DNA of 64,000 bases from Smithella sp. (lineage in GTDB: Bacteria; Desulfobacterota; Syntrophia; Syntrophales; Smithellaceae), in contig DAOPVC010000004.1 in assembly GCA_035350895.1 (NCBI GenBank), forward strand, positions 1,223-65,222, given 5' to 3'. Shown here one piece after another: positions 28,937-44,044 of the stretch (the stretch's first letter is position 1; every line of letters begins with the position of its first letter). A program made the translations under genes and the position numbers. Under the pieces are notes generated by a model that searched no databases, was not told the DNA's origin, and saw only the letters and a program-made list of their open reading frames with translations.

Positions 28937-30163
28937 ATGATTTCTGTAGAAAAAGCTCTCAAGACGATTCTCGTGAATTTCCGGCCGCTGGGTCTGGAAA
29001 AAATCAATATTCTGGACGTTTGCGGCAGAGTCATCGGTGAAGATATTTTCGCGTCACGCAATATTCCATCCGCCGCTAATTCCGCCATGGACGGCTATGC
29101 CGTGTCCTTTGCTGATGTTAAAAACGCGCCGCGCGCATTGAAAATCATCGAAGACATCCCGGCCGGAAAAATCGCCCGGAAGAAAATCAATAAAGGAGAG
29201 GCCGCCCGCATCATGACCGGCGCGGTAATTCCTCAGGGAGCAGATACCGTCATCCGTCAGGAAGATGCCCAAAAAGACGGCAAAACCGTCATGATTCTTA
29301 TCCGTGCGCAGAAAGGAGATCATATCCGTTACGCCGGCGAAGATGTGCGCAAAGGAGAACGGGTTATCAAAAAGGGGGATGTCCTGCGTCCGGCGCATAT
29401 CGGAATGCTGGCGGCTCTGGGCAAGGCCTCTGTCCGCGTTTATCAAAAACCGCGCGTGGCGATCATGTCAACCGGCGATGAGCTGGTTGATATCAAGACC
29501 ATCCCCGGCCCGGGAAAAATAGTCAACAGCAACAGTTATTCACTGGCAGCTCAGGTACTGGAAAGCGGCGCGACACCGATCATGCTGGCAATTGCCAGGG
29601 ATAAAAAATCCGACTTGCAGAAAAAATTCAAAACCGCCCTGAACGCCGATGTGATCATTTCCTCCGGCGGCGTTTCCGTCGGCGATTTCGATTTCGTAAA
29701 AAACGTCATGGGAGAAATCGGCAACGCCATGCGTTTCTGGCAGGTCGCCATGCGCCCGGGTAAACCGCTGGCTTTCGGCGCCATTGAAGGTGTTCCTTTA
29801 TTCGGCCTGCCGGGGAATCCTGTCTCCACGATGGTTTCCTTTGAGCAGTTTGTGCGCCCATCTCTTTTGAAAATGCTGGGTCATAAAAAAATCTTCCGCC
29901 AGACGATAAGCGCAACCTGTACGGACGGATTCGAAAAGAAAGCCGGATTCCGGCATTTCATCCGCGCCGTCGTCAGACGAGAAAACGGCCAATATGTCGC
30001 CACAACAACCGGTGATCAGGGTTCCGGAATTTTAAAATCGATGGTCGCCGCCAACGGCCTCATTGTCATGGGAGAAAACGAAACCCATATCGAAAAAGGA
30101 TCGACGGTGACGGTTCAGTTGCTGGACGACTCTTTGTCCTGGTCGGAGTCTCTTCAACTATAA
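28937..30163 (+). CDS. moeA: Molybdopterin molybdenumtransferase
   Basis: It has the MoeA N/linker, MoCF-biosynthesis and C-terminal domains (SAMDGYA, MSTGDEL, GLPGNPVS). The start is placed at ATG 28937 (GGAGA RBS) rather than 28835. Confidence 0.9.
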   Translation: MISVEKALKTILVNFRPLGLEKINILDVCGRVIGEDIFASRNIPSAANSAMDGYAVSFADVKNAPRALKIIEDIPAGKIARKKINKGEAARIMTGAVIPQGADTVIRQEDAQKDGKTVMILIRAQKGDHIRYAGEDVRKGERVIKKGDVLRPAHIGMLAALGKASVRVYQKPRVAIMSTGDELVDIKTIPGPGKIVNSNSYSLAAQVLESGATPIMLAIARDKKSDLQKKFKTALNADVIISSGGVSVGDFDFVKNVMGEIGNAMRFWQVAMRPGKPLAFGAIEGVPLFGLPGNPVSTMVSFEQFVRPSLLKMLGHKKIFRQTISATCTDGFEKKAGFRHFIRAVVRRENGQYVATTTGDQGSGILKSMVAANGLIVMGENETHIEKGSTVTVQLLDDSLSWSESLQL

Positions 30164-30188
30164 AATCCATATTATATCTTATTGCTTG

Positions 30189-30217
30189 TTGACACTTCGC
30201 CATTTTGCGGATAAATT
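30189..30217 (+). promoter_or_regulatory. Sigma70-type promoter of selC
   Basis: TTGACA (30189-30194), a 17-nt spacer, then TAAATT (30212-30217). It ends 7 nt before the first tRNA nucleotide. Confidence 0.5.
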
Positions 30218-30224
30218 CATTCAC

Positions 30225-30322
30225 GGAAGCGCCAAGGTCACTGGTGGGCCTCCCGGACTTCAAATCCGGTGTGGGGCGCTAAAACCGTCCCAGGTGGGTT
30301 CGATTCCCATGCGCTTCCGCCA
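30225..30322 (+). tRNA. selC: tRNA-Sec (anticodon UCA)
   Basis: 98 nt. The 8-bp acceptor stem is GGAAGCGC/GCGCTTCC. The anticodon stem is CCGGA/TCCGG with loop CTTCAAA (UCA). The long variable arm is GGGGCG-CTAAAAC-CGTCCC. The T arm is GTGGG-TTCGATT-CCCAT, followed by discriminator G and an encoded CCA. The overall layout parallels E. coli selC. Confidence 0.93.
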
Positions 30323-30373
30323 ATATTTCCTTGAATATCAATAACTTAATTTTTTAAAAGCGTGCCGATAAAA

Positions 30374-30740
30374 TCAGTGATATGTGTTTTTTGTCGGTCG
30401 GGCTCTCTGGATTCTTCTGCCGAGAGAATCATAAGCGAAGGTATACGCGCCGGTGGTATCGGAGATAATCTTCGTCATCTGGTTGTTGGCGTTGTAGTAA
30501 TAATTGATGGTTTTGAGTGTGCCCGTGCTTTCCTTCATCGTCATCTTTGTTCTGCTACCCATGATATCAGAGCTGGGCCAGATTGTAGCTGGTCACTCCG
30601 GTCATGCGGTTGGTGGCATCGTAGTTGTAGTAGTAGACGATACTGGAATGGGCAGTTCCTGTCAAATTGCCGGACTGGTCATACTCGACGAGATTTTGCT
30701 CTTGGGCGAAACTTTGGTTAAACGGTAGACCTTGTCGTTA
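30374..30740 (-). pseudogene. Decayed RHS core fragment
   Basis: Two frames are broken by an internal deletion. They read ..EQNLVEYDQSGNLTGTAHSSIVYYYNYDATNRMTGVTSYNLAQL* and MGSRTKMTMKESTGTLKTINYYYNANNQMTKIISD..FAYDSLGRRIQR. This is about 80-90% similar to residues encoded at about 35095-35420 of the full-length RHS gene. Confidence 0.7.
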
Positions 30741-30813
30741 CTTTAGTATTTCGTTGTCAAATATCACTTGTCAAAAACAATTGGTATGATGTTTCCGGAT
30801 TTCTTATTGTCAA

Positions 30814-31191
30814 TTAATTAGAACTGTTTCCAATATTTCTTTTTCTCCATTTCCCTGAAATCCACGCGCCGATATATCCAAATATAATGCAGGGTATGGT
30901 AAGAAACGCGTAAAATACTATTCCAGGAGGTAATAAATTCCAATCACCCTCGGTTAAAAACATCGTCATAACAAGTTGGACAAAAATAATATAGATTCCC
31001 CATCGCCAAAACCGATCAGAAAAAAGAAGACCCATTATCCCTGAAAGCAATATTGAGATAGGATATCCGATTTGCCAGTATGATAGCAAATCCGTTGGAT
31101 CTTGAGGGCTTGCAATGACCTTAAATACCGTCCAGATTATAGCGCCAATTATTAATGCTATAAACACTTTTGAATATTCACTTATTTTCAT
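30814..31191 (-). CDS. Small 4-TM membrane protein, candidate immunity protein for the orphan RHS toxin
   Basis: 125 aa with four hydrophobic helices and a basic C-terminal tail (KWRKRN). It lies immediately downstream (33 nt) of the orphan RHS tip. AT-rich. Confidence 0.5.
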   Translation of the reverse strand: MKISEYSKVFIALIIGAIIWTVFKVIASPQDPTDLLSYWQIGYPISILLSGIMGLLFSDRFWRWGIYIIFVQLVMTMFLTEGDWNLLPPGIVFYAFLTIPCIIFGYIGAWISGKWRKRNIGNSSN

Positions 31192-31224
31192 ATTCCTCCT
31201 GTAAATCTTTATACGCCTGAATAA

Positions 31225-32796
31225 TTACCACCCTCTACCCGCCCCACCCGTAGCACATTCACAATCACTTTTACCGATGTTTTCTGCAACACAATGAACG
31301 GCATCCACATTGCACTTTTCGCATGCACCAAATCCAAATCTCCATGATAACATATTGCAACCATATCGCTTGTAACAATTGTCATGTGCTATACAACATT
31401 TTTTTGTACAGGGATTATTGTTTAAACGTCCAGCTGGTCTCGTACAAATGTTATCTTGTTCAGAATAACCGGGCAAAGGACTACCATTGAAAGGCCATCC
31501 TCCGTACCAAGGCCATCCATCAGCACCTTCAAAAAGATGCTGACCGAAAAGAGTTTCATAGAAACCACCGTAATCATTATAATTTATAGGATTACCGATT
31601 CCAATACCAGAAATATTTGGATCAATCCTAGGCACTGGGCCAACACCTGGTACCCAATCTGTGAACATACCCAACGAATAGCCCCATGTTAATCCATATG
31701 GATCTGAGAAATTTACGGGGTTCTGACGCGCATACAAATATTGATTTATTCCACCCCCGAATCCAATCGGGTCTCTGGTGATAAACCTCCCTGCGTTCGA
31801 ATCATAATATCTTGCTCTGTAATAGTAAAGATTCGTTTCAGAATCGTATTCTCTGCCGGTATAGGTAAAGGGCTGCTTAATCCAGAATGGCGTGGATTTG
31901 ATGTTGCCGAAGGAATCATAATCGTATTCCTGCACCTTATGTCCCATGTGGTTGGTTAGCGTTGTGATTGACCCTAATCCGTCGGCATGATAGTAAATCC
32001 TCGTGTTGTTAATTTCCGCCGCCAGAGGCTCGTCTATGTTCGGACCGTGAATGTAGAAGGCGGTCTGTTTGCCGTTTCCATCGTACTCGGTAATGATGTT
32101 CTGCTGGTCATAGATGTAAAAGGTCGTTCTGGGATAATCCGGCTTGTTGAGCAGTTGGCCGATAATATTGTTGTCGTCATCCAGTTCTTCCCTCTCGGTC
32201 GTCTTGGATATTCTTCTGCCGAAGGGATCATAGGCAAAGCTTACTGCTTTAATCTTGTCTCCTTTCCTGATGGTTACATCAATTAATCTGTTTTCATCAT
32301 CGTAGGCGTAAGAAGTGATTGTTTTCCATTTGCCGACGGTTTCCATCTTTTTAATCAGATTGCCATTAGCATCATATTCATTTTGCGTTTTCTGATGAGG
32401 ATGTTCTGTTGATGTCAGCAGTTCATTGCCATCATTGTATGTATAGCTGTCAAATTTATCGGGGCCGGTCTGGCGGTTACCCACGGGATCATAGCTGTAG
32501 GCTTCGGTGTGGTGATGGACAATATCATCGAACAGCTTTTCCAGTTTATTCCTGCTGAAAGGAGAGGCTTTGGCTAAACGGTAAACCTTGTCGTAAGTAT
32601 AATTCATCGTATGGGGAATGTTTTCTTTGATGGTTTGGGTCAGTCTGTTGCCCACAGGATCATGGGTATAGGCAAAACTGTCGATGGTCTGATGAAAAGC
32701 GTTCTTATGCGTAATGCCGGAGATTCTGCTGAGTTGTTCATAAATCAACATGCAATTGTTAAAGAGCAAAAAGACACAGCGGAAAAAAATCTTCAA
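31225..32796 (-). CDS. Orphan RHS C-terminal cassette with phospholipase-A2-like tip
   Basis: 523 aa. Residues ITHKNAF...RDPIGF are identical to the main RHS protein. The RHS core end is RFITRDPIGF...DPYGL. A unique Cys-rich tip follows, containing KKCCIAHDNCYKRYGC. Confidence 0.8.
   Translation of the reverse strand: MKIFFRCVFLLFNNCMLIYEQLSRISGITHKNAFHQTIDSFAYTHDPVGNRLTQTIKENIPHTMNYTYDKVYRLAKASPFSRNKLEKLFDDIVHHHTEAYSYDPVGNRQTGPDKFDSYTYNDGNELLTSTEHPHQKTQNEYDANGNLIKKMETVGKWKTITSYAYDDENRLIDVTIRKGDKIKAVSFAYDPFGRRISKTTEREELDDDNNIIGQLLNKPDYPRTTFYIYDQQNIITEYDGNGKQTAFYIHGPNIDEPLAAEINNTRIYYHADGLGSITTLTNHMGHKVQEYDYDSFGNIKSTPFWIKQPFTYTGREYDSETNLYYYRARYYDSNAGRFITRDPIGFGGGINQYLYARQNPVNFSDPYGLTWGYSLGMFTDWVPGVGPVPRIDPNISGIGIGNPINYNDYGGFYETLFGQHLFEGADGWPWYGGWPFNGSPLPGYSEQDNICTRPAGRLNNNPCTKKCCIAHDNCYKRYGCNMLSWRFGFGACEKCNVDAVHCVAENIGKSDCECATGGAGRGW
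31760..32715. repeat. 956-bp direct repeat, copy 1 (orphan RHS cassette)
   Basis: By eye, line by line, it is identical to 34081-35036 (offset 2321 bp). The six-frame ORFs at 31987-32286 and 34308-34607 translate identically. Confidence 0.9.
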
Positions 32797-32800
32797 CTGC

Positions 32801-33697
32801 TTATTTGCTTATCAATGCACAGATCAACGCTAAAAAAATTGATAAAATTATAATAACGATAATATCCTTTTTTAAAACTGGAAAATAGAAGTTACTTGGT
32901 CTTTCTCTTTGAACATTTATTGGCATAAATATTATCAGGCCAAATTTCAACAGGATCATAATATTTACAACTAATATAGCTATTGATTCACTCCAAATAA
33001 GCCAGTGCTGCCTTATTTTTAATTCATAACCCGCAGATAAAATTATAAATATTAAAGTGCCAATACAGATTATTATTTTCACCTTTTCAACACTTGACGA
33101 TAATCGAGGTATAGGCCTAGAAAAATAATTAATTGTTTCCTTCGGAATTTTTCTTGATTTATATAATAACAATAGTATTGTAAAGACAAATACTCCAGAA
33201 ACTATTTCAAAACTATTATTAATAACGTTTTTGTTATGTCCAATACAACTCATAAGTGGCAGTACCAGAATTACCGGTACAGACATCATTAAAGTCGCAT
33301 AAGAAATAAAATATTTAAACGCTTTCGTGTCTTCACTGTTTTTAGATACTTCTGATACATCGGGAATCAATATCGATAGGAGCAAATAGAAATATCCACA
33401 AAAAATAAAACTAAGTGGTATAAATATAACAAATGCCAATTTTAATATATTAATATTAATGAAGTGAATACTGAAATACGAATGTAAATAATTTACTAAA
33501 ACTATCCCAATAAATGTCGAATTGATGCTCCAAAGAATTTTAGCATAATCTTTATATCGTAAAGCTAAAAAGGCAATAATAGGTAGAAAGTAAAAAAAAC
33601 ATATTGCGCCACCAAGTGTTTTTTGTAAATCTAAAATTCCAAAATATAGAAATATTAAGGCCCACAGTAAATTGAACAAGCTAAACAAAATAAGCAT
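32801..33697 (-). CDS. Polytopic membrane protein (about 9-10 TM), candidate immunity protein for the main RHS toxin
   Basis: 298 aa, extremely AT-rich and hydrophobic. It starts 19 nt downstream of the RHS stop and ends 4 nt before the orphan cassette ORF. Confidence 0.55.
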   Translation of the reverse strand: MLILFSLFNLLWALIFLYFGILDLQKTLGGAICFFYFLPIIAFLALRYKDYAKILWSINSTFIGIVLVNYLHSYFSIHFININILKLAFVIFIPLSFIFCGYFYLLLSILIPDVSEVSKNSEDTKAFKYFISYATLMMSVPVILVLPLMSCIGHNKNVINNSFEIVSGVFVFTILLLLYKSRKIPKETINYFSRPIPRLSSSVEKVKIIICIGTLIFIILSAGYELKIRQHWLIWSESIAILVVNIMILLKFGLIIFMPINVQRERPSNFYFPVLKKDIIVIIILSIFLALICALISK

Positions 33698-33716
33698 AAA
33701 TTATCACCAATATTAA

Positions 33717-36700
33717 TTACATTAGACAAAGATTTTTCTTTTTTTGAATACATTTCTTGTATTCCTCAAACGCTTCGACATAACTATGTTTCGCTTCTTT
33801 TGTTAGAAAATAGCCACCTACGCCATAAGCAAGAGAAGCAGGAAGAACTGCGACTACTAGATATGGAGCAAATGTACTTACTCCCATGGGAAATGTAATC
33901 GCAGTCACATAAAAACCAATCCCCGTAATATAGTCTAATACACTAATTCCTAAAGCCACTTTATTAATATGTGCAAAGCATTCGGTATAACCAAAAAGAG
34001 TCTCATAGAGACCCAATGGATCAACTTTATTAACGGAATTTCCGTCAACATAATTGTAAAGATTCATTTCCCCGCTATTAAATCCAATCGGGTCTCTGGT
34101 GATAAACCTCCCTGCGTTCGAATCATAATATCTTGCTCTGTAATAGTAAAGATTCGTTTCAGAATCGTATTCTCTGCCGGTATAGGTAAAGGGCTGCTTA
34201 ATCCAGAATGGCGTGGATTTGATGTTGCCGAAGGAATCATAATCGTATTCCTGCACCTTATGTCCCATGTGGTTGGTTAGCGTTGTGATTGACCCTAATC
34301 CGTCGGCATGATAGTAAATCCTCGTGTTGTTAATTTCCGCCGCCAGAGGCTCGTCTATGTTCGGACCGTGAATGTAGAAGGCGGTCTGTTTGCCGTTTCC
34401 ATCGTACTCGGTAATGATGTTCTGCTGGTCATAGATGTAAAAGGTCGTTCTGGGATAATCCGGCTTGTTGAGCAGTTGGCCGATAATATTGTTGTCGTCA
34501 TCCAGTTCTTCCCTCTCGGTCGTCTTGGATATTCTTCTGCCGAAGGGATCATAGGCAAAGCTTACTGCTTTAATCTTGTCTCCTTTCCTGATGGTTACAT
34601 CAATTAATCTGTTTTCATCATCGTAGGCGTAAGAAGTGATTGTTTTCCATTTGCCGACGGTTTCCATCTTTTTAATCAGATTGCCATTAGCATCATATTC
34701 ATTTTGCGTTTTCTGATGAGGATGTTCTGTTGATGTCAGCAGTTCATTGCCATCATTGTATGTATAGCTGTCAAATTTATCGGGGCCGGTCTGGCGGTTA
34801 CCCACGGGATCATAGCTGTAGGCTTCGGTGTGGTGATGGACAATATCATCGAACAGCTTTTCCAGTTTATTCCTGCTGAAAGGAGAGGCTTTGGCTAAAC
34901 GGTAAACCTTGTCGTAAGTATAATTCATCGTATGGGGAATGTTTTCTTTGATGGTTTGGGTCAGTCTGTTGCCCACAGGATCATGGGTATAGGCAAAACT
35001 GTCGATGGTCTGATGAAAAGCGTTCTTATGCGTAATATTGGTTAATCGGCTTAGCTGGTCGTAGCTGTAACTGGTTACGGTATCGTTGGGCAGGGTTCTT
35101 TTAATTCTTCGGCCGAGAGAATCATAAGCGAAGGTGAAACTGCCCATATCGGAGACAATCTTCGTCATCTGGTTGTTGGCGTTGTAGTAATAATTGATTG
35201 TTTTGGGCATGCCCGTGCCTTCTTTCATCGTCATCTTTGTTCTGTTGCCCATGATGTCGTATTGATATTCAATATTGAAGAGCTGGGCCAGATTGTAGCT
35301 GGTCACTCCGGTCACGCGGTTGTCGGCATCGTAACTGTAGTAGTAGACGATGCTGGGATTGGCAGCTCCTGTCAAATTGCCGGACTGATCATACTCAAAG
35401 ATATCGGAGGTGCCGTCGGGATAATTTCTTTCCACCAGTCTGTTCAACGCGTCGTAAATGTAATTGATGGTCCGCCCATCGGGCTTGGTCTTGGAAATCA
35501 CGTTGCCTTTCGCGTCGTATGTGTAGGTTGTGAAGTTTCCCTGCGGGTCGGTCTCTTTAATCAGTCTGCCCGTCTGGTCGTATTGATAAGTTGTTGTGTG
35601 ATTTTTGGCGTCAGTGACTGTCGCAAGTTTATCCGAGCCGCCTCCGCAGGTGGAACAACCTCCCGCGCCGTAAGTAAATGTAGTTTTTTCGCTCAGGGCG
35701 TCGGTCATTTTGATGAGCTGATTTTTGTAATTATACTCGTAAGTGGTCGTGTTACCGTTGGCATCGGTGACGGATAATCGATTGCCGTTGGCGTCATGTG
35801 TGTATCTACTGGTCTGTCCGGCGGAATCGGTAACGGCGATCAGTTGATTGAGGCTGTTGTACTGGAACGTTGTTTTATTTCCCGTCGCATCGGTCTGGCT
35901 GATCATATTGCCCAGATTATCGTAAGTCTGCGATGTTGTCTGACCGGTGGGACTGGTCATGGAAATCAGGTTATGGTTAGAATCGTAAGCCATTTGCGTG
36001 ACACCGCCGGCAGGATCAGTAATAGTGATGATATTGCCTCTGCTGTCGAAGGTGTAGCGGGTTGTGGCGCCAGACGGGTCAGTTGTGGAGGTCACATTGC
36101 CGTTGTCATCGTAGGTATAGGACGTTTGGCTGCCTGCGGCGTCGGTAATGCTTATGACCTTATTCTGATCATTATAGGCATAAGTTGTCGTGTTGTTCAG
36201 CGCATCGGTGACGGAGGTCATGTTGCCGTTTTGGTCATAGGTATAGTTTGTCGCTGTGCCGTCGGGTTCCGTTTTGCCGGTCAGATTGCGGTTGGAATCA
36301 TATTGGTAATACGTTGTGGCGCCGGACGGGTCGGTTTTAGACGTTAACGCGCCGAAAACAGGATCGTATTTGTAAGTCCAGGCGCCGCCGTCCTGCTCGA
36401 TTATGGTGGTTGTATTGTTTTCCGGATCATACTGGATGTTGCGGGCATAACCCTGCGGATCGATGGCCTGAGTGACGCGGTGTTCGGCATCGTAGGAATA
36501 CCGGACAAGATTACCCTGCGGATCGGTTTTGGTCAGCATGAAGGCCTCGCCGTCGTAAGTGTAGTGCCATGTCTGTGTACCCAGTGAGCTATGGGATGAC
36601 ACGGAAGTCAGAGTGTCTCCGCTGTAGCTGAAAGCATAGCTGTTGTTGTTGGGATCGGTGATGGCGCTGATTCTGTTGCCGGCATAGCTAAGATAGATTG

Positions 36701-38237
36701 CTCTTCCCGCCAGATCGGTGATACTAACCAGATTGCTGCCAGCACTGTAGGTGAGATTGACTTGATTGCCGTTCCTGTCCGTGATTGCTGTTAATTTCCC
36801 GTTCGTATTAAATGAATAAACCATGCCGTTTTTATAGAGGAGTGTGAATGTGCCGTCGGTGTTGACCTGCAACATCGGATAAGCGGAGATATCAGACGTG
36901 TAATAGTCGCCATTTCTGTATAGGGAAATCATGCCGCCGCGATCGTCGGAAAGGATATAGGCGTCATCCGTGGGATCGGTTGAAATAAAAACGTTGTAGG
37001 TATGTGTCCATCCTTTTCCCAATACGCCATTGTATCCTTCCATGCTGTTGTAATACAGCGTAAAGTCAGGCATTAAGCCGGAGGAATTGGGCACGGTGAA
37101 AAGATTCTGCGAATGACTTAAGTTGCCGCTGGCAATGTTTAAAGATGAATCAAAAGAAACGTCCAGTTTGCAATCTTTTTCCCGGGCAGCAACTTTAAAC
37201 GATTTATTGTTGGAATTCCGGCAAGTCGGATCATCAATTTCTTGCGCTGAAAGTGTGGCCGTGTAAGATCCCGGGGGCACAACATCTCCATTAGCATCTT
37301 TCCCATTCCAGGAAATTGAGCCTGGATTGCCAGAGCCATGAATAGGCGCAATGCCGGAAACACCGCCGCTTATTGTCAGTGTCCATGTAAACGGCTGGGA
37401 TGAAGTTATTTCGGCTTCGAATATTATCCTTCCGCCGTTTCTTGGATCAATGATCGTGTTTGATCCGTCAAATTTGTTGATTTTAAGATCGCATGTCGTA
37501 CATTCGTTCACAGTCACTGGAGGCGGAGAAGCTGAAGCAGAACCTGGCGGGCAACAGCCGCTGGTTTTGAGTGGATCATTTCTATAGTCTTGAACAATTT
37601 CTGTAGACGTTTTACTTATCACGGGATAAATATCAGCGTCCGATGGCATGAAGGCATTCCATGCATTTTCGCAGGCTTGTACCGGATTAGCAGGATCTCC
37701 GCAGGCATAATCAATATAATAAGCGGTAGTTGAATCTACATAATCACCACAACAATAGACACTTCTACGACTTAAAAATAATCTGGCTTTATGATACCAA
37801 GCGGTAGAGCACATATCGAGGCAAGTGCTCCGCCACCAGATTTTATAAGCTCTACATTCTGATTGCGTAGAATTAACACAAGTTGCATTAACAGTAATGC
37901 TTTTATAGACGATTTGCCCTGCTTTGTCGGTTACACTGATAAGAGGATTTAGATCACAATTCGGATTGCTGGAAGGCGAAGTGTAATTTACGGAAGTGCC
38001 TGTTGAAGAAGAAAGACTTCCGCCGCCGCTATTAATCTCCCAAAAATAAGGCCCGCCGCACCCCCCGAAAACCGATAATGTTGCGATTTGATTGATAGAC
38101 ATCTGGGACGGTCCGTTAATCATGAAAGGCAAAGGTGGCTCGGCCTTGCTGTTTCCAATAAACAATAAATTAAGAACATTAATAAAGATAAATACCGATG
38201 CAAAAAGAAAAGTCCTTCGAACTGTCAACATGATCAA
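33717..38237 (-). CDS. RHS/YD-repeat protein with Sec signal peptide and short hydrophobic C-terminal tip
   Basis: 1506 aa. It has a signal peptide (..IGNSKAEP), a Cys-rich N-terminal region and a FlgD-Ig-like stretch (GSISWNGKDANGDVVPPGSYTATL). It has dozens of YD repeats. The RHS core end is RFITRDPIGF...VDPLGL, followed by a 96-aa tip. Confidence 0.9.
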   Translation of the reverse strand: MIMLTVRRTFLFASVFIFINVLNLLFIGNSKAEPPLPFMINGPSQMSINQIATLSVFGGCGGPYFWEINSGGGSLSSSTGTSVNYTSPSSNPNCDLNPLISVTDKAGQIVYKSITVNATCVNSTQSECRAYKIWWRSTCLDMCSTAWYHKARLFLSRRSVYCCGDYVDSTTAYYIDYACGDPANPVQACENAWNAFMPSDADIYPVISKTSTEIVQDYRNDPLKTSGCCPPGSASASPPPVTVNECTTCDLKINKFDGSNTIIDPRNGGRIIFEAEITSSQPFTWTLTISGGVSGIAPIHGSGNPGSISWNGKDANGDVVPPGSYTATLSAQEIDDPTCRNSNNKSFKVAAREKDCKLDVSFDSSLNIASGNLSHSQNLFTVPNSSGLMPDFTLYYNSMEGYNGVLGKGWTHTYNVFISTDPTDDAYILSDDRGGMISLYRNGDYYTSDISAYPMLQVNTDGTFTLLYKNGMVYSFNTNGKLTAITDRNGNQVNLTYSAGSNLVSITDLAGRAIYLSYAGNRISAITDPNNNSYAFSYSGDTLTSVSSHSSLGTQTWHYTYDGEAFMLTKTDPQGNLVRYSYDAEHRVTQAIDPQGYARNIQYDPENNTTTIIEQDGGAWTYKYDPVFGALTSKTDPSGATTYYQYDSNRNLTGKTEPDGTATNYTYDQNGNMTSVTDALNNTTTYAYNDQNKVISITDAAGSQTSYTYDDNGNVTSTTDPSGATTRYTFDSRGNIITITDPAGGVTQMAYDSNHNLISMTSPTGQTTSQTYDNLGNMISQTDATGNKTTFQYNSLNQLIAVTDSAGQTSRYTHDANGNRLSVTDANGNTTTYEYNYKNQLIKMTDALSEKTTFTYGAGGCSTCGGGSDKLATVTDAKNHTTTYQYDQTGRLIKETDPQGNFTTYTYDAKGNVISKTKPDGRTINYIYDALNRLVERNYPDGTSDIFEYDQSGNLTGAANPSIVYYYSYDADNRVTGVTSYNLAQLFNIEYQYDIMGNRTKMTMKEGTGMPKTINYYYNANNQMTKIVSDMGSFTFAYDSLGRRIKRTLPNDTVTSYSYDQLSRLTNITHKNAFHQTIDSFAYTHDPVGNRLTQTIKENIPHTMNYTYDKVYRLAKASPFSRNKLEKLFDDIVHHHTEAYSYDPVGNRQTGPDKFDSYTYNDGNELLTSTEHPHQKTQNEYDANGNLIKKMETVGKWKTITSYAYDDENRLIDVTIRKGDKIKAVSFAYDPFGRRISKTTEREELDDDNNIIGQLLNKPDYPRTTFYIYDQQNIITEYDGNGKQTAFYIHGPNIDEPLAAEINNTRIYYHADGLGSITTLTNHMGHKVQEYDYDSFGNIKSTPFWIKQPFTYTGREYDSETNLYYYRARYYDSNAGRFITRDPIGFNSGEMNLYNYVDGNSVNKVDPLGLYETLFGYTECFAHINKVALGISVLDYITGIGFYVTAITFPMGVSTFAPYLVVAVLPASLAYGVGGYFLTKEAKHSYVEAFEEYKKCIQKKKNLCLM
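34081..35036. repeat. 956-bp direct repeat, copy 2 (main RHS gene)
   Basis: Identical to 31760-32715. Confidence 0.9.
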
Positions 38238-38570
38238 TTGCTCTCCGTTATTTTATTGATAATAACTTTTCTGAAACGAACAGTTACTCAGCCACTTGCT
38301 AATATATAATTGCCGACGATTGTCATAAGCGCTTCATGACTGGCAACGGTATTTATAGTAATGATTTTTTGCTAAACTTTTACTGAAATCGTTTCGGCAT
38401 ATGATAAAAGCCCGCCAAAAACGGACTTTTTTATTTGTGAGATAATAAGGCTTTTTTTATAATTAAACTTCTAATAAGAAATCAAGTTTTATTTTGATCA
38501 AACGATATTTTAAATACACTGTTATTGATGCGATTGTTTTAAATATCATTAATTTTTCAATAACAGAATG

Positions 38571-38598
38571 GGCCGGATTCCCATGTGCTTCGCCAATA
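38571..38598 (+). repeat. Remnant of the tRNA-Sec 3' end (att-like island boundary)
   Basis: GGCCGGATTCCCATGTGCTTCGCCAATA aligns with tRNA 30297-30325 (GGTTCGATTCCCATGCGCTTCCGCCAATA). The T-stem pairing ATGGG/CCCAT is retained. Confidence 0.6.
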
Positions 38599-38739
38599 AA
38601 TCATCTTTATAATTATTGAAACCTATGGCAGAATAACAAGCATTGATCATAGGCGTGATTGACCTGAACAATTTGAAGATTGCTGAAGAATTTTTGCAAT
38701 CAATATGACATTTCAATAATTCAAGAAAAAAAGAGGACT

Positions 38740-39414
38740 ATGCAAATGAACGTAATAGAAGCCATACAGAAGCGCAGGAGCATTCGGGCGTTTACGGAGA
38801 AGCCGGTGCCCAAAGAAACGATTATGGCAATTCTGAATATCGCCTGCCGGGCGCCTTCGGCGATGAATACGCAACCGTGGCAATTTATCGTGATCACCGG
38901 CGAAAAGCTCAACAAACTTCGTGCCGCCATCGTGGAAAAGCTGAAGAGCGGCGCGCCCATTGTGCCGGATCATCAGGTGGTGAGCTGGCCCGATAAAAGC
39001 GTTTATAAAGATCGTCAAATCACGCTGGCTAAGCAGCTCTTCAAAACCATGGACATTGCCCGTGAAGATAAAGAAAAACGCGCCTGGTGGATGGAACGGG
39101 GTTTTCGTTTCTTTGACGCTCCGGCGGCCATTATCGTTGCATGCGACAAGATTCTGGGCGAGGCGGCGCCTCTTCTGGATCTGGGGGCGGTCATGCAGAA
39201 CATCTGCCTGGCGGCCCTTGATGTCGGTCTGGGAACCTGTATTGAGGATCAGGGCGTGATGTACCCTGAAGTCGTCCGCGAACATACCGGTGTTTCACCG
39301 GAAAAGCGTCTGATGATAGCGATCGCAATCGGCTATCCGGATGAAAATTTCCCGGCTAATCAGGTCTGTTCGGAACGCGAACCGGCAGCCAGTCTCACCC
39401 GTTGGGTGGAATAA
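38740..39414 (+). CDS. Nitroreductase-family protein
   Basis: It has the KRRSIRAF motif near the N-terminus and SAMNTQPW. The start is placed at ATG 38740 (AAGAGGA RBS). Confidence 0.85.
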   Translation: MQMNVIEAIQKRRSIRAFTEKPVPKETIMAILNIACRAPSAMNTQPWQFIVITGEKLNKLRAAIVEKLKSGAPIVPDHQVVSWPDKSVYKDRQITLAKQLFKTMDIAREDKEKRAWWMERGFRFFDAPAAIIVACDKILGEAAPLLDLGAVMQNICLAALDVGLGTCIEDQGVMYPEVVREHTGVSPEKRLMIAIAIGYPDENFPANQVCSEREPAASLTRWVE

Positions 39415-41047: not shown

Positions 41048-42130
41048 ATGCTGGATTTAAAAGAAGTATTTTCCGGAAAAAAGAGTCTTGTCGGTTTGGA
41101 TATCGGGTCAAGCTCCATAAAGTTGGCGGAGGTAATCAGCAGCTCCAAGGGACATTACCTTGAACGTTTTTGTGAAGTTCCCCTGCCCAAGGGGGTCATC
41201 ATCGACGGCATTCTGGCCGACGTAAGCGTCCTTTCCTCAAAAATCAAAGAAATCTTCAAGATCGCCCGTTGCGGACGCAAAGGGATCGTCACTTCTCTGG
41301 CCGGCAATTCCGTCATTATCAAGAAAGTTACACTGGAGCAAATGAATGAAGCGGAATTGCGTGACTTGATTCGTGATGAAGCAGGCAAGTATCTGCCGTT
41401 TGATAATATGGATGACGTTAATTTCGATTTTCAGATTCTGGGTGAAAACAATTATAATCCCAACCAGATGGATATTGTCATCGTCGCCGCGAAAAAAGAA
41501 ATCGTCAACAGTTATCTGGAAGCGGCAACGGCAGCCGGGCAGAATGTTGAAATTGTGGATGTGGCCCCGTTTGTCCTGGAAACATTATATGAAGTTAATT
41601 ACGAATACGACAACGAAGAAATCGTTGTCTTAATCAACATCGGAGCAAGCACCACCGGAATTAATGTCGTTAAAGGGGGGACATCTGTTTTTACAAGAGA
41701 TTTTGCGCTGGCCGGCAATTCCATCACGGAGAGCATCCAGGAAAAATATCATGTGACATTTGAAGAGGCGGAAAAGCTTAAAATCGAAGGAATGCCGAAT
41801 GGAAGCGAAGGCGATAATCTTGATTTGAAAAATAATATTCTTGAATTTGCCCAGCCAATCTGCATGGAAATCGAAAGATCGATTGATTATTTTCGTTCAA
41901 CGTTCGGCGGTGAAGATATCAAACAAGTATTGCTTGCCGGTGGATCGGCCAGAATATCCAATCTGACGAAACATTTGTCGGAATTATTAAATGTGAAAAC
42001 AGAAATAATGGACTCGTTTCTGAAGATTAATTACAACAAAAGAAAAATAGACGTCAAAAATCTGGAAAATATCAAACCGGTGGCGGCAACAGCCATCGGC
42101 TTGGGACTGAGGAAAATAGGCGACAAATGA
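41048..42130 (+). CDS. pilM: Type IV pilus assembly protein PilM
   Basis: 360 aa, actin-like ATPase fold (GLDIGSSSIKLAE..., GGGSARI). Confidence 0.9.
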   Translation: MLDLKEVFSGKKSLVGLDIGSSSIKLAEVISSSKGHYLERFCEVPLPKGVIIDGILADVSVLSSKIKEIFKIARCGRKGIVTSLAGNSVIIKKVTLEQMNEAELRDLIRDEAGKYLPFDNMDDVNFDFQILGENNYNPNQMDIVIVAAKKEIVNSYLEAATAAGQNVEIVDVAPFVLETLYEVNYEYDNEEIVVLINIGASTTGINVVKGGTSVFTRDFALAGNSITESIQEKYHVTFEEAEKLKIEGMPNGSEGDNLDLKNNILEFAQPICMEIERSIDYFRSTFGGEDIKQVLLAGGSARISNLTKHLSELLNVKTEIMDSFLKINYNKRKIDVKNLENIKPVAATAIGLGLRKIGDK

Positions 42131-42675
42131 TCAAGATTAATCTTTTACCTTATCGTGAAAAGGCCAAAAAAGATACTTTTTTGAGGCAGATATTTATTGC
42201 CGCCGGCTCTGTCGTCCTGTTCATTCTTCTGCTTGTTTGGGTTACGTTCTGGATCAAATCCTCGATCAGTGATTTGGAAACACAGATAAAAGACTCGGAA
42301 TCTTCCATAGCCGTTCTTAATAAAAAAATAGGGGATCTGGAAAAATTCAAGAAAGACAAAAAGGAACTGGAGCAGAAAATAGGGGTTATTGCCACACTGG
42401 AAGAAAATCGTCTGACTCCATTAAAAACATTGGATAACCTGGCTCTGCTTGTTCCAACCAAGGATATCTGGTTCGTCAAGATTAATCAGAAAGGCGACAC
42501 CATTACCATTGAGGGAATCGGCCGGGATAATATTATTGTGGCGAATTTCATGAAAAGCATCGAACAGTTTGAACCGATAAAATCAGTCGATCTGGTCTCT
42601 TCAAAAAAGACTGAAATTGCCGGAACTACTTTGCAACAATTTAATTTTTCCTGTGTTTTGAAAAAAGGGTTTTGA
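42127..42675 (+). CDS. pilN: Type IV pilus assembly protein PilN
   Basis: It has the N-terminal INLLPYREK motif, one TM helix and a coiled coil. The start overlaps the pilM stop. Confidence 0.85.
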   Translation: MIKINLLPYREKAKKDTFLRQIFIAAGSVVLFILLLVWVTFWIKSSISDLETQIKDSESSIAVLNKKIGDLEKFKKDKKELEQKIGVIATLEENRLTPLKTLDNLALLVPTKDIWFVKINQKGDTITIEGIGRDNIIVANFMKSIEQFEPIKSVDLVSSKKTEIAGTTLQQFNFSCVLKKGF

Positions 42676-42678
42676 GAG

Positions 42679-43404
42679 ATGGCCATTGATATAAACACGA
42701 TAAAGAAAATGTCTCCTAAAGTAAAAGCTTTAGTTGTGTTTCTGGGGTTTTTATTAATCGGCTACTTCTATTGGTTCTACTTTCTTTCTTCAGCCGTTGA
42801 GAAAAGAAGCGCGTTGAGCACACAACTCTCAGAAATGCAGAATAAAATCAACGAGCAGAAGAAAATTGCCATGCAGCTCAATAAGTACAAGGCTGATGTG
42901 GCAACGCTGCAGGAAAGTTACAAGATAGCATTGCAAAAGCTTCCCGACCAGCGGGAAATACCATCTCTTTTTCACTCAGTGGCTTCAGCGGGTAAGGACG
43001 CCGGCGTTGAGTTTGTATTATTCGAACCCAAAGCTTCGGTACCCAAATCGTTGGATGCGCAGACATCCGCAGGCCCAAAGACAGCGGCATTACTTAAGCC
43101 TTCCGACCAGCGGGATCAGAAGCCGGCCAACGCCCCGGAAAGCAAGGATGCTGCGGGGCAGCAGTCCCAGGAACCTTTTTATGAAGAAATACCGGTGGGA
43201 ATATCCATTTTGGGCAACTATCAAAATATTCTCTATTTTTTCGATAAAGTTTCTAAATTACCCCGGATAGTAAATGTTTCCGATATTTCAATCGGTGACC
43301 GGAAAGAAGTAAAAGGCAGGGGATATCTTATCACCGCATCCTGCACGATAAAAACGTACATGTTTATTGATAAAAAAGACAAGGCAAGTGAAAAAACACA
43401 ATGA
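42679..43404 (+). CDS. pilO: Type IV pilus assembly protein PilO
   Basis: Assigned from its position in the operon, a single TM helix, a coiled coil and a PilO-like C-terminus. Confidence 0.75.
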   Translation: MAIDINTIKKMSPKVKALVVFLGFLLIGYFYWFYFLSSAVEKRSALSTQLSEMQNKINEQKKIAMQLNKYKADVATLQESYKIALQKLPDQREIPSLFHSVASAGKDAGVEFVLFEPKASVPKSLDAQTSAGPKTAALLKPSDQRDQKPANAPESKDAAGQQSQEPFYEEIPVGISILGNYQNILYFFDKVSKLPRIVNVSDISIGDRKEVKGRGYLITASCTIKTYMFIDKKDKASEKTQ

Positions 43405-44030
43405 AAAAAATTTTTTTAATTTTCATTAACTGTCTCCTGATAATTTTTTGTACGGCATTTTTTGTTTTTGCCGCAGAGGTTAAAAGCGCCGCCACTCCCG
43501 GTTCTGCCGTCACGGCAAATGCTGTTGCCGCCAAACAACAACAGCCCCCCCCTGTGAACGTGCCAGCTTCGGCCCAGGCCCTCAAAAAGCCGGCGCTTCC
43601 GGTTGCCGCCGTTCCTGTTCCGGCAAAGGATCAAAAACAGCAGGCACTTCCACCTTCGGTGAATCCTCCTGCGGCGGACACTTATAGTTACAATCCATCG
43701 GGAAAACCGGATCCTTTCCGTCCTTTTATCGTCATTGAAACGGCGCCAAAACCCAAACAGCAAACGGCAGCCAAGAAAACCAAGACGTCCATTTTCCCCT
43801 TACAAAGAGCGGAAACAACCAGTTATAAAGTGGTGGGGATTGTCGGGAATGAAGATCATCGAGTGGCGATTGCTGAAGATTCCGCAAAAAAGTTTTATCC
43901 GTTGTTGATCGGAACAAAAATCGGATTAAACGATGGCAGGGTGGTGGAAATTCTTGCTGACCGTGTTATTGTGGAAGAGTATGACAACAGAAAAGAAAAA
44001 AGGGTCACTTTAAAACTGTACAAAAATTAA
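43401..44030 (+). CDS. pilP: PilP-like pilus assembly protein
   Basis: It has a signal sequence, a Pro/Ala-rich linker and a C-terminal beta domain (YKVVGIVGNEDHRVAIAED...). It lies between pilO and pilQ. Confidence 0.7.
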   Translation: MKKIFLIFINCLLIIFCTAFFVFAAEVKSAATPGSAVTANAVAAKQQQPPPVNVPASAQALKKPALPVAAVPVPAKDQKQQALPPSVNPPAADTYSYNPSGKPDPFRPFIVIETAPKPKQQTAAKKTKTSIFPLQRAETTSYKVVGIVGNEDHRVAIAEDSAKKFYPLLIGTKIGLNDGRVVEILADRVIVEEYDNRKEKRVTLKLYKN

Positions 44031-44044
44031 AATGAGGTAACGTC

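Follow-up and report, generated by a model that had tools for sequence, protein, structure and literature searches.

A decayed copy of the tRNA-Sec 3′ end bounds an Rhs islet at selC in an uncultured Smithella-like deltaproteobacterium

Positions 30323-38568 of the 64-kb stretch of DNA analysed here (the window) are, in our assessment very probably, an islet of about 8.25 kb that was inserted at the 3′ end of selC by a tyrosine integrase and has since lost that integrase. An intact tRNA-Sec gene stands at its left junction and a partial, decayed copy of the tRNA 3′ end at its right junction; the rhs genes between them would be the cargo of the integrating element (Table 1).

Table 1. Features of the selC locus, with positions in the window.
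Feature	Position	Strand	Evidence
moeA, left-flank core gene	28937-30163	+	Pfam MoeA_N, MoCF_biosynth, MoeA_C
sigma-70-like selC promoter (TTGACA-17-TAAATT)	30189-30217	+	consensus scan, 10/12
selC (tRNA-Sec, anticodon TCA)	30225-30322	+	ARAGORN; Rfam RF01852, 77.7 bits
attL copy of the repeated core, GATTCCCATGCGCTTCCGCCA, the final 21 nt of selC	30302-30322	+	
islet left end (P′-arm-like)	30323-30372	+	shared with unrelated L101 island
truncated third rhs fragment (older orphan remnant)	30400-30694	-	Pfam RHS_repeat, E = 2e-5
125-aa membrane protein, putative orphan-toxin immunity protein	30814-31191	-	2-3 hydrophobic segments (hydropathy)
orphan rhs C-terminal module	31225-32796	-	TIGR03696 Rhs_assc_core, 4.2e-24
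298-aa polytopic membrane protein, putative main-toxin immunity protein	32801-33697	-	about 8 hydrophobic segments (hydropathy)
main rhs gene, 1506 aa	33717-38237	-	Pfam RHS_repeat 3e-115, TEN_YD-shell, DUF6531; TIGR01643, TIGR03696
AT-rich non-coding right end of islet (P-arm side, upstream of rhs)	38238-38568	.	93% identical in L095
attR, decayed tRNA-Sec T-arm, 3′ acceptor strand and ATA, TGGGCCGGATTCCCATGTGCTTCGCCAATA	38569-38598	+	alignment; position in L096/L097
nitroreductase gene, right-flank core gene	38740-39414	+	Pfam Nitroreductase, 2e-32

The tRNA-Sec gene is the single tRNA that ARAGORN reports in the window, and its match to the Rfam family (E = 4.6e-15, against a threshold of 47 bits) confirms the gene as the initial annotation had placed it. 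The promoter-like site upstream and the core genes on either side are likewise present as described. The order mfd-moeA is conserved among Syntrophales relatives. At the other junction, the copy of the tRNA 3′ end claimed by the same annotation is present to the letter: GGCCGGATTCCCATGTGCTTCGCCAATA, at 38571-38598, is a 28-nt imperfect copy that aligns with the tRNA 3′ end plus ATA (GGTTCGATTCCCATGCGCTTCCGCCAATA) at 24 of 29 positions, with four substitutions and a 1-nt deletion, and the TGGG just 5′ of it (38569-38572) likewise matches the tRNA. The repeat does not recur; it is the sole match at up to 6 edits on both strands of the whole window, and 60 dinucleotide-preserving shuffles of the window yielded no match at up to 5 edits (0/60). 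The tRNA is duplicated in its 3′ part only, the 126 nt 5′ of the repeat having no significant similarity to the first 69 nt of the tRNA (score 14, a value reached by 22% of shuffles and by 76% of windows elsewhere in the genome).

Relatives of the host carry the same site without the insert. In L096, L097 and L099, at about 80% amino-acid identity to the window, moeA, selC and the nitroreductase gene are contiguous, with mfd-moeA upstream of selC in all three and TPR, HTH, divIC and pilM genes also downstream in L097 and L099. The nitroreductase gene begins at 10001 in each, 23 nt beyond selC in L096 (9880-9977) and about 140 nt beyond it in L097 and L099 (9760-9857). The attR of the window ends 144 nt before the nitroreductase start, as compared with about 137 nt in L097, and it occupies the place of the real tRNA 3′ end of L096 and L097; the sequence behind it (ATAAATCATC...) has its homologue in the DNA that natively follows the tRNA in L097 (ATATTATCATCATC...). 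These three observations, namely the empty sites, the position of attR and the homologous flank behind it, uphold the attL/attR reading originally proposed, and every check suggested along with it spoke in its favour. In five or more lineages at about 80% identity the slot is either empty or filled with different cargo. No empty-site relative was found at species level, and no empty-site junction in the contig-level read data of four runs, contigs being a form of data that hides rare variants; the islet is fixed in every assembly and run of this species examined.

As judged from their sequences, selC in these relatives is a multi-allelic hotspot, with integrase-bearing elements at the same core. 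L098 shows integrase-driven insertion at this site directly: over 10,833 bp, beginning exactly at TTCGATTCCC in the tRNA T-loop, its sequence is that of the empty-site L097 (99.98% identity), and upstream of this point it has a perfect 24-nt repeat and a gene for a 404-aa tyrosine recombinase (Pfam Phage_integrase, 2.4e-14). This integrase is only distantly Xer-like (XerA is its best NCBIfam match, at 59 bits where the cut-off is 220). Its N-terminus is Cys-rich and resembles a zinc ribbon, and it counts 73 relatives, mostly from Syntrophales, Smithella or deltaproteobacterial MAGs. Every locus of the family with DNA has one arrangement: after the integrase come one or two ORFs, then a P arm in which GTGCCGATAG stands in tandem, and then the 24-nt core seen in L098. 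Tandem core arrays are frequent among these loci, and tandem att copies or modular sub-islets are seen in L140, in L205 and L206 (cores 11916, 16960) and in L209 and L212 as compared with L210. Cargo at the site is diverse, and here too a repeat of the tRNA-Sec 3′ end marks its boundary. In L101 (repeat at 9947-9971) the slot is filled by 8.6 kb that code for a chromate transporter, a TetR regulator, an FGGY kinase and an amidohydrolase; in L140 an internal 20-nt repeat precedes glycosyltransferase, ATP-grasp and PAP2 genes. The final 21 nt of tRNA-Sec stand alone on 30 IMG/VR contigs, in 14 of which a distant homologue of the integrase adjoins them, mostly ending just upstream and co-oriented.

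In the window itself, tblastn detected no integrase, excisionase or remnant of either, just as the initial annotation had stated, and the catalyst of this particular insertion is therefore inferred by analogy with these elements to be a now-lost integrase. The left end of the islet, which carries AAAAGCGTGCCGATA, does not resemble the sequence that natively follows the tRNA in empty sites and is 92% identical over 39 nt to L101:1387-1425. It contains GCGTGCCGATA at 30360-30370, 38 nt past the tRNA, and all L098-family integrases examined have two tandem copies of the same 10-mer beside them, preceding the core by 59 and 70 nt; this is circumstantial evidence for an arm-site link between the islet and that family. 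The right end of the islet (38238-38568) has no resemblance to the family's conserved P arm.

The sister lineage L095 has both the rhs gene and the attR (there GGGCCGGATTCCCATGCGCTTTTGCCA) in common with the window, at 95% amino-acid identity for the nitroreductase, 81% for the Rhs N-terminus and 90-93% identity for the surrounding non-coding DNA. Two changes in attR are private to the window lineage and two different ones to L095, and because the repeat is shared but privately mutated in each, the insertion must be old. Three T-loop differences from the tRNA (CCG for TTC) are common to both and may be element-derived or the product of old decay. The repeat drifts at about the rate of the non-coding DNA around it, and its independent decay in the two lineages fits the description of the islet as fossilised.

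Between the tRNA and the repeat, domain and hydropathy scans recover what had been described from the outset, that is, Rhs modules and two membrane-protein ORFs, and nothing else. The architecture of the main Rhs protein is clear: a signal-peptide-like N-terminus is followed by a FlgD-Ig-like and DUF6531 region and a YD-repeat shell, the Rhs-associated core closes with DPLGL (aa 1406-1410), and a hydrophobic C-terminal domain of 96 aa (33720-34007) completes the protein, with hydrophobic segments at aa 1-30 and 1446-1478 in the hydropathy scan. Homologues of its N-terminal region are very rare (6 in a set of 5.8 billion proteins, all at 46% or below), and none of those with examinable context lies at selC. 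Directly 3′ of the gene is that of the 298-aa membrane protein. The orphan module consists of a core 3′ end (31760-32715), a DPYGL motif and a Cys-rich putative toxin domain (31228-31689) with a PLA2-like CCIAHDNCY motif. It shares with main rhs a 956-bp stretch that is 100% identical, and this duplication is real, since in three runs the depth of its unitig is double that of the neighbouring ones. In P0010 the same toxin domain has a homologue of the 125-aa membrane protein fused to it or next to it; profile searches returned no family match for the 125-aa protein or for the 298-aa one, and an immunity function is putative for both, as is a toxin function for the two C-terminal domains. The third rhs fragment, with 81.6% nucleotide identity to main rhs 35093-35404, ends abruptly 77 nt from the tRNA.

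The islet had also been called AT-rich, which is true of the whole (41.6% GC, against 48.3% and 46.6% in the flanks) and of the toxin tips and immunity genes, but not of the rhs core. The 43 genes outside the islet average 47.9% GC (sd 3.4) and 53.2% GC3 (sd 4.6), and main rhs falls within their range (45.6% and 51.0%). The 298-aa gene (27.3% GC, 24.2% GC3) and the 125-aa gene (36.0% and 32.8%) do not, the toxin and immunity modules lying 3.5 to 6 sd under host GC. Foreign composition is thus limited to the toxin tips and immunity genes, and the rhs core is not distinguishable from the host.

In the explanation that we favour, the crossover would have fallen between the T-loop and CCA, in the final 21-24 nt of the tRNA gene. 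An intact tRNA would have been rebuilt at attL from the copy of this segment that the element brought with it, and the displaced native 3′ end would have stayed with the native downstream DNA at attR, before the nitroreductase gene. Loss of the integrase and fixation of the islet would have come afterwards, with attR drifting once it was free of selection. The Sec-signal-bearing main Rhs is predicted to encapsulate its 96-aa hydrophobic C-terminal toxin in the YD-repeat shell and to release it, and the polytopic membrane protein encoded after it would confer immunity. Beyond these, a displaced orphan module would supply a Cys-rich toxin with its small membrane immunity protein, followed last by the stump of a third module, and the 956-bp identical stretch could serve as a substrate of homologous recombination for the swapping of toxin tips.

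The cut in the third rhs fragment, so close to the tRNA, implies that the present content is a rearranged remnant, and it may not be the original cargo. One possibility, which would refine the main explanation more than compete with it and to which we give somewhat less than even chances, is that the islet is composite: the att footprint would derive from one or more elements accreted in tandem at selC, and the Rhs array from one of them only or from homologous recombination into a pre-existing islet. A later internal deletion would then have joined the P′ arm of the element nearest the tRNA to sequence midway in the Rhs array, with loss of the integrase or integrases, of an internal att copy and of the remainder of the third rhs module. 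Such a history would accommodate the truncated fragment, the first 50 or so nt after the tRNA that are shared with the non-Rhs L101 island and carry the L098-family arm motif, a P-arm side unlike that family, the host-like rhs core, and the tandem att arrays and modular gain and loss of sub-islets in L140, L205/L206 and L209/L212 versus L210. It sits less well with a window that holds no internal att remnant at up to 6 edits and with a left-end similarity as short as 39-50 nt.

Host-like core composition could also be expected if the rhs region were ancestral and the "empty" relatives had lost it by deletion between repeats, the repeat at the right junction being an older, unrelated relic; fixation throughout the species and presence in L095 would agree with this. 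We consider it improbable in view of the five or more lineages with an empty or differently filled slot, the handful of N-terminal homologues, none of them at selC where context could be examined, and the deviant composition of the toxin and immunity modules. Less credible still is a chance match, or the remnant of a tandem tRNA-Sec duplicate (a pseudo-tRNA), with no integration behind it. The imperfection of the match leaves some room for this, and the retained T-stem could suggest a tRNA-like relic, but shuffled sequences gave nothing comparable, the 5′ two-thirds of the tRNA have no counterpart upstream, the position of the repeat is kept in L095 and equals the native tRNA end of empty sites, and identical partial repeats bound other inserts at the same site.

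Genomic islands enter at tRNA 3′ ends, with integrase-made direct repeats of 16-20 bp on either side (PMC2704930), and the general features of insertion at the tRNA-Sec 3′ end in Enterobacteria have been set out (PMC2704930; PMC7545054). Like the enterobacterial selC islands (LEE, SHI-2, AGI-3 of E. coli BEN2908), the islet is inserted at the tRNA-Sec 3′ end and bounded by a direct repeat of that end, its site holds cargo that varies between strains, and it lacks an integrase, as many of those islands do or have only a degenerate one. It is, however, merely 8.25 kb long and without a mobility gene. The enterobacterial hotspot invoked by the initial annotation has a multi-allelic counterpart here, but in a host that is no enterobacterium: it is an uncultured Syntrophales/Smithella-like deltaproteobacterium from anaerobic-digester and wastewater metagenomes. 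In the related elements the order integrase, one or two ORFs, P arm, core puts the integrase on the side away from the intact tRNA, unlike in Enterobacteria, where the integrase of P4-like islands typically adjoins selC and where retronphage phiR73 is a selC-associated prophage.

The cargo invites comparison with Rhs loci that have orphans (Salmonella Typhimurium SPI-6; rhs of E. coli and Dickeya), with which it shares the YD-repeat shell, a core ending in PxxxxDPxGL, a variable C-terminal toxin with the immunity gene immediately 3′, a tip and immunity region more AT-rich than the core, and an orphan module with a core stretch in common with the main gene. Such shared stretches allow recombinational tip-switching (PMC7043789; PMC4436062). 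The window differs from these Rhs loci in that PAAR, VgrG and T6SS genes are absent from its 64 kb, in an N-terminus that resembles a Sec signal peptide and leads into a Cys-rich region, then an Ig-like domain and DUF6531, in an N-terminal region with almost no public relatives (6 matches), and in the integral-membrane nature of both putative immunity proteins.

The orphan C-terminal domain, for which 5 homologues are known, recalls Tox-PLA2, a polymorphic-toxin domain of phospholipase A2 fold with a DxC[ST] element (Zhang et al. 2012, PMC3482391). Like Tox-PLA2 it comes after an RHS core and has the invariant C-x-x-H-x-x-x-Y (CIAHDNCY), and its N-x-C-T resembles DxC[ST]; unlike the published motif, it has no N after the Tyr. 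In Pfam and PDB it matches secreted PLA2s alone, with the catalytic His-Asp aligned and with scores far below threshold (10.7 bits against 32.1; PDB E about 8), and Foldseek gave no match to this domain, whose AlphaFold model is poor (pLDDT 45.8).

Tandem accretion of islands at one tRNA gene is described for the pheV islands of E. coli, among other cases (PMC11537424). The serial att copies and modular sub-islands at selC in L140, L205/L206 and L209/L212 are of this type; the window, in contrast, keeps only two att copies, so that accretion there is a matter of deduction and not of sight. Overall, the islet is an ordinary genomic islet of the integrase type minus its integrase, its cargo is a typical Rhs array, and it belongs to a kind that is already known.

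The only tRNA that ARAGORN finds in the window is a tRNA-SeC (tca) at 30225-30322 on the plus strand, and the Rfam tRNA-Sec model scores that interval at 77.7 bits (E = 4.6e-15), in agreement with the initial annotation; the TTGACA-17-TAAATT promoter that it had placed ahead of the gene is likewise found as a promoter-like site at 30189-30217. The islet begins at the base next to the tRNA (30322/30323), so that the 3′ end of a tRNA gene is the target, and at its far side the sequence GGCCGGATTCCCATGTGCTTCGCCAATA (38571-38598) agrees with the T-arm, the 3′ acceptor strand and the following ATA at 24 of 29 positions and lacks one nucleotide; the TGGG that precedes it matches the tRNA too. This repeat, noted in the first reading, is the only match at six or fewer edits on both strands of the window, and none of 60 dinucleotide shuffles of the window contained a match at five or fewer. 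The direct repeat characteristic of tRNA islands is therefore present, as a copy at 38569-38598 (attR) that duplicates only the 3′ part of the tRNA: the 5′ 69 nt of the tRNA have no significant similarity to the 126 nt upstream of attR, which argues against a full-length pseudo-tRNA at that site.

In GTDB, MoeA and Mfd are most similar (56-70% identity) to proteins of uncultured deltaproteobacteria, Smithella and Syntrophaceae/Syntrophales MAGs, and metagenomes of anaerobic digesters, activated sludge and wastewater contain contigs that encode proteins identical to those of the window. The taxonomy of these matches rules out an enterobacterial context, so that the first reading is sound in its observation and its interpretation but not in its taxonomic framing. 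At 56-70% identity in MoeA the synteny right of selC is no longer conserved, making the GTDB genomes uninformative for the right boundary. Loci were instead gathered by searching metagenome contigs with the right-flank nitroreductase, and the proteins and tRNAs of the window were then mapped onto them.

Several of these loci are empty. In L096, mfd, moeA (84%) and selC (9880-9977) are followed by the nitroreductase gene at 10001 with nothing between the last two, and L097 and L099 have the same arrangement except for a gap of about 140 nt, with TPR, HTH, divIC and pilM downstream as in the window. The expectation that moeA, selC and nitroreductase would be contiguous in relatives lacking the insert is thus confirmed, with nitroreductase directly after selC in all three. 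L095, from a sister lineage, is occupied like the window (nitroreductase 95% identical, Rhs N-terminus upstream 81% identical), L101 holds an 8.6-kb insert of other cargo between selC and the nitroreductase gene, L103 has about 1 kb with two small reverse-strand ORFs, and L102 and L140 have still different content. Since relatives show empty, Rhs-occupied and differing cargo states, the selC-nitroreductase interval is a multi-allelic hotspot. Upstream of the nitroreductase homologue in L102, a run of imperfect direct repeats of about 90 bp (…TTCGAAGTGACA…GTCATGTCGAGCG…; L102:2900-3420) fills the selC-side intergenic region, with an autotransporter gene beyond; these repeats resemble MITE or REP sequences. 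The window also contains a complete pilMNOPQ type IV pilus assembly/secretin cluster (41048-45778, plus strand), 2.3 kb downstream of the islet and preceded by an HTH gene and a divIC/ftsB-like gene, which L097 keeps at about 90% amino acid identity.

Junctions were located by a fuzzy search of the loci for the tRNA 3′ end, together with alignment. The attR copies of the window and of L095 belong to the same element and read GGGCCGGATTCCCATG(T/C)GC(-/T)TT(C/T)GCCA, then ATAAATCATCTTTATAAT. Each has changes of its own, namely a C-to-T substitution and the 1-nt deletion in the window and CC to TT in L095, and, as these differ, the ancestral attR would have had 21 perfect nt (GATTCCCATGCGCTTCCGCCA) plus ATA. 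The non-coding DNA around attR is 90-93% identical between the two, so attR drifts roughly neutrally. Past attR, the DNA of the window aligns with the native DNA that follows the intact tRNA of the empty site L097, and the spacing to the start of the nitroreductase gene is 144 nt from the window attR versus about 137 nt in L097. In L101, attR (GGTTCGA-CCCCATGCACTTCCGCCA) lies about 30 nt ahead of nitroreductase, with a downstream flank like the native flank of L096, and L140 carries an internal 20-nt copy of the tRNA 3′ end. The junctions thus have the pattern of integration, an intact tRNA followed by element DNA and a displaced 3′ end followed by native DNA, and the empty sites, the homologous native flank and the matching spacing together support the proposed attL/attR footprint of insertion into the tRNA 3′ end.

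Two features of these ends deserve separate mention. The acceptor stem of the window tRNA-Sec has a C-G pair (30230 / 30311; GGAAGCG / CGCTTCC) where all relatives examined (L006, L096, L097, L101 and L103) have T-A (GGAAGTG / CACTTCC), which is a compensatory double change, and the attR of the window and that of L095 carry the G version. In addition, TTTTCAATAA stands just ahead of attR and its inverted form TTATTGAAA about 20 nt past it (38556-38565 and 38617-38625), while TCAATAACTTA also occurs after selC at attL and past the core in the viral contigs L196 and L202; these may be sites for accessory factors, such as IHF-like ones, or plain AT-rich chance.

Between the two copies of the tRNA 3′ end all genes lie on the minus strand, and the RHS modules and membrane-protein genes described initially are indeed there, as three rhs parts (main, orphan and fragment) and ORFs of 298 and 125 aa (see the table). 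The main rhs has 16 RHS-repeat matches (PF05593, 3e-115) and a TIGR01643 match at 1.8e-91, as befits a YD/RHS shell, and the Rhs-associated core TIGR03696 is recognized in both the main (1.8e-22) and the orphan (4.2e-24) modules. The cores end in DPLGL (main, aa 1406-1410) and DPYGL (orphan, aa 365), after which the two tips are unrelated, giving the core-plus-variable-C-terminus layout of Rhs proteins. Positions 31760-32715 of the orphan are 100% identical to 34081-35036 of the main rhs over 956 bp, as in an orphan module. In three independent runs the unitig of the repeat is covered about twice as deeply as those beside it, which shows the duplication to be real, and the gene order of the islet is identical in independent JGI and ENA assemblies. 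Complete identity over 956 bp implies either a very recent duplication or ongoing gene conversion.

Features of the islet and of related selC loci (window coordinates unless a locus is named)
Feature	Location	Strand	Description
Main rhs	33717-38237	-	1506 aa; hydrophobic signal-peptide-like N-terminus, then Cys-rich, FlgD-Ig-like, DUF6531 region
Main rhs tip		-	96 aa, hydrophobic; follows DPLGL
Putative immunity protein	32801-33697	-	298 aa, about 8 hydrophobic segments
Orphan rhs module	31225-32796	-	core part 31760-32715, DPYGL, then Cys-rich tip
Orphan Rhs tip, Cys-rich domain	31228-31689	-	partner is the 125-aa membrane protein
125-aa membrane protein, putative immunity	30814-31191	-	in the position expected of an immunity gene
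Older rhs fragment	30400-30694	-	81.6% identical to 35093-35404; ends 77 nt from tRNA
L101 insert genes			chromate transporter, transposase fragment, TetR regulator, saccharopine dehydrogenase, FGGY kinase, amidohydrolase
Tandem GTGCCGATAG	L098:3061-3082; L205-L208:11846-11867; L209:12434-12455; L210-L212; L214:8910-8931		
Serial cores	L205/L206 at 11916 and 16960; L209 at 12504, 13311; L212 at 6720, 7527		L210 single

The Rhs proteins are presumably interbacterial toxins. The 298-aa and 125-aa ORFs sit where immunity genes are expected, directly downstream of the toxin tips, and a homologue of the 125-aa protein accompanies the same toxin domain elsewhere (protein P0010); both membrane proteins are the putative cognate immunity proteins. 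The tips may have been swapped by recombination over the identical 956 bp, as exchange of main and orphan rhs tips by recombination has been described for other systems (PMC7043789). The main Rhs protein has no T6SS PAAR/VgrG, T7SS or Tc-toxin partner domain, and no delivery-system genes occur among the annotated neighbours within about 20 kb on each side; the cargo is a bona fide Rhs array without a visible T6SS link.

The insert had been described as AT-rich, and its GC content is indeed 41.6% versus 48.3% and 46.6% in the flanks; the description holds for the toxin tips and immunity genes but not for the main rhs, which is host-like. The 43 genes outside the islet average 47.9% GC (sd 3.4) and 53.2% GC3 (sd 4.6), and the main rhs (45.6% and 51.0%) falls within 1 sd of them, whereas the values of the tips and immunity genes are lower by 3.5 to 6 sd, with GC of 35.2% in the first toxin tip, GC and GC3 of 27.3% and 24.2% in the 298-aa gene, and of 36.0% and 32.8% in the 125-aa gene. 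AT-rich tips and immunity genes are usual for Rhs elements.

Among 5.8 billion proteins the orphan tip has only five homologues. Each of them comes after an RHS core, and one forms a fusion with a homologue of the 125-aa protein. Across the tip and these homologues 10 cysteines are conserved and CCxxHDxCY is invariant, the tip itself reading CCIAHDNCY with C98, C99, H102, D103, C105 and Y106 unchanged in six of six family members. In Pfam and the PDB it matches nothing but secreted PLA2s, with the catalytic His-Asp aligned and with scores far below threshold: PF00068 reaches a non-significant 10.7 bits against a cut-off of 32.1, and phmmer against the PDB gives E of about 8. An AlphaFold2 model from the 6-sequence alignment, at a pLDDT of 45.8, is too poor to decide, and Foldseek with this model retrieved nothing from the PDB at E ≤0.001. 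Tox-PLA2 domains, whose motif is CxxHxxxY, are already known on RHS proteins (PMC3482391). The orphan tip fits this catalytic motif, whereas in profile and fold it has no significant match to Tox-PLA2 or secreted PLA2; it is probably a divergent Tox-PLA2. On a bolder and rather doubtful reading, the tip and its 125-aa partner represent a rare and divergent kind of PLA2-like Rhs toxin that a membrane protein neutralises. In the homologues, the toxin opens with YETLFG right after DPLGL, and YETLFG also opens both tips of the window (main, about 34007; PLA2-like domain, 31560 region; minus strand). The orphan has an extra stretch of about 43 aa between DPYGL and YETLFG that contains a degenerate second core end, '...DP......NPIN..D.GG'; the shared YETLFG and this second core end look like traces of past tip displacement, a nested recombination junction.

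What kind of enzyme uses this target can be seen in L098, which is 99.98% identical to L097 and L099 over 10,833 bp, the identical stretch opening precisely with TTCGATTCCC in the T-loop (L098:3131 = L097:9834). The L098 sequence ahead of this position is element DNA, with a 404-aa tyrosine recombinase (Pfam Phage_integrase, 2.4e-14; distantly Xer-like), a 190-aa ORF and a P arm with tandem CGTGCCGATAG. Given this identity, one species holds both empty and integrase-occupied alleles. Residues 30-55 of the integrase (L098:1243-2454) form a CxxC...CxxC segment (CQRCGITRRERVCPKCGYDAC) that is typical of the family and looks like a zinc ribbon; such an N-terminus is unusual among tRNA-targeting tyrosine integrases. 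At E ≤1e-20 there are 73 relatives, mostly from Syntrophales, Smithella or deltaproteobacterial MAGs. The loci L205-L212 and L214 repeat the layout, an integrase being succeeded by one or two ORFs and then by the P arm and 24-nt core also present in L098, the core being the T-loop-to-CCA segment of the tRNA, so that in relatives the core is used by integrase-bearing elements. Tandem GTGCCGATAG, 70 and 59 nt upstream of the core, stands beside every integrase of the L098 family that has a core in reach and is a candidate arm-type integrase binding site; one family locus, L213, yielded neither core nor P-arm motif. In several family loci two cores follow one another, and strains differ in the sub-islets that they carry, for example a ParE-toxin module of about 800 bp; this shows stepwise accretion at selC in related bacteria. 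The cargo includes restriction-modification systems, GmrSD, DnaB or DUF3987 replication genes and ParE toxins. In IMG/VR, 30 contigs hold only the last 21 nt of tRNA-Sec without a full tRNA, and in 14 of the 30 a distant homologue of the L098 integrase (22-27% identity) adjoins, in most cases ending just upstream and co-oriented. With integrases paired with the core both in the L098 family and in these contigs, integrase-mediated targeting of the tRNA-Sec 3′ core is common.

By analogy, a tyrosine integrase, since lost, would have recombined attP with attB somewhere between the T-loop and CCA, with attL rebuilt from element sequence and attR being the displaced native tRNA end. As noted at the outset, no integrase remains: the window has no integrase ORF, and tblastn searches with the integrase of L098 and the ORFs beside it gave nothing below E = 0.3. 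No joint skipping 30323-38595 occurs in the contigs of four runs over 29800-39400, rare variants being hidden at contig level. With no integrase, a decayed attR, presence in all assemblies and no skipping junction in the four runs, the islet is most likely immobile.

The left end of the islet bears on whether a single element inserted here or whether several accreted in tandem at selC and were later fused by deletion. The first ~50 nt past selC (30323-30372) are unlike the native flank of empty sites and match the left end of the unrelated L101 island at 92% over 39 nt. Within them, 38 nt past the tRNA, GCGTGCCGATA (30360-30370) is the motif tandemly repeated in the P arm of the L098 family, and one copy lies 35-38 nt past selC in both the window and L101; this suggests that the left end is tied to L098-family integrases. 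The right-hand P-arm side of the window is unlike the P arm of that family, and a 15-mer scan for the left-end motif gave 74 matches, estimated to be about chance for the size of the collection, none of them near a tRNA-Sec core. Scanning IMG/VR for the tandem P-arm motif gave nothing, and among six integrase homologues, every element with DNA runs more than 10 kb upstream or off the contig before attL is reached. Should an L098-type attL read selC and then ...AATATCAATAA...AAAAGCGTGCCGATA..., the left end of the window would derive from that family.

Because of the left end's link to the family and of the truncated rhs stump next to the tRNA, the islet may be what a deletion left when it fused parts of more than one element. 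Searching with the N-terminal 415 aa that are unique to the Rhs protein found only six proteins, at most 46% identical, and no copy of the same array with an integrase; the one homologue with usable context (P0002) sits at a different locus, beside core genes. The fullest version of the composite reading we regard as rather doubtful when taken as a whole: that the left end keeps the arm-type site GCGTGCCGATA of an undescribed, Syntrophales-wide family of selC-specific tyrosine integrases with a zinc-ribbon-like N-terminus, laid out as an integrase, 1-2 ORFs, a P arm with tandem GTGCCGATAG and the 24-nt core; that these integrases move defence and toxin cargo about and give rise to tandem selC arrays in uncultured syntrophs; and that one such array, fused by deletion, survives as the islet.

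With its insertion at the 3′ end of selC, the islet is a clean, comparatively documented example, from beyond the much-studied pathogens, of the way in which tRNA islands arise according to the textbooks. The selC site of uncultured Smithella/Syntrophales-like bacteria in anaerobic digesters is a multi-allelic hotspot of integration whose empty, integrase-occupied, fossilised and alternative-cargo alleles are available side by side. The attB core is now defined and, paired with the candidate integrases and their conserved P arm, might serve as a site-specific integration tool in a group without genetics, and the cargo places Rhs toxins with membrane-embedded putative immunity proteins in obligate syntrophs, whose competition biology is little known. 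That the alleles form a comparative series and that attP architecture is conserved across a Syntrophales integrase family is neat rather than surprising.

Genomic islands are recognized by insertion at a tRNA 3′ end, (near-)perfect target repeats of about 16-20 bp, absence in relatives and mobility genes such as an integrase, functional or cryptic, and they range from 10 to 200 kb, smaller ones being called 'islets' (PMC2704930). Measured against this description (PMC2704930), the insert has the tRNA target, the direct repeats and the empty sites, and part of it has a deviating composition, whereas it lacks a mobility gene and, at 8.25 kb, is below the size range. It behaves as a tRNA-associated genomic islet and largely counts as one, and since it has no mobility gene and is smaller than 10 kb, 'fossil islet' is the right label. 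Overall, it extends known principles to a new lineage and leaves the current understanding of tRNA-integrated islands unchanged.
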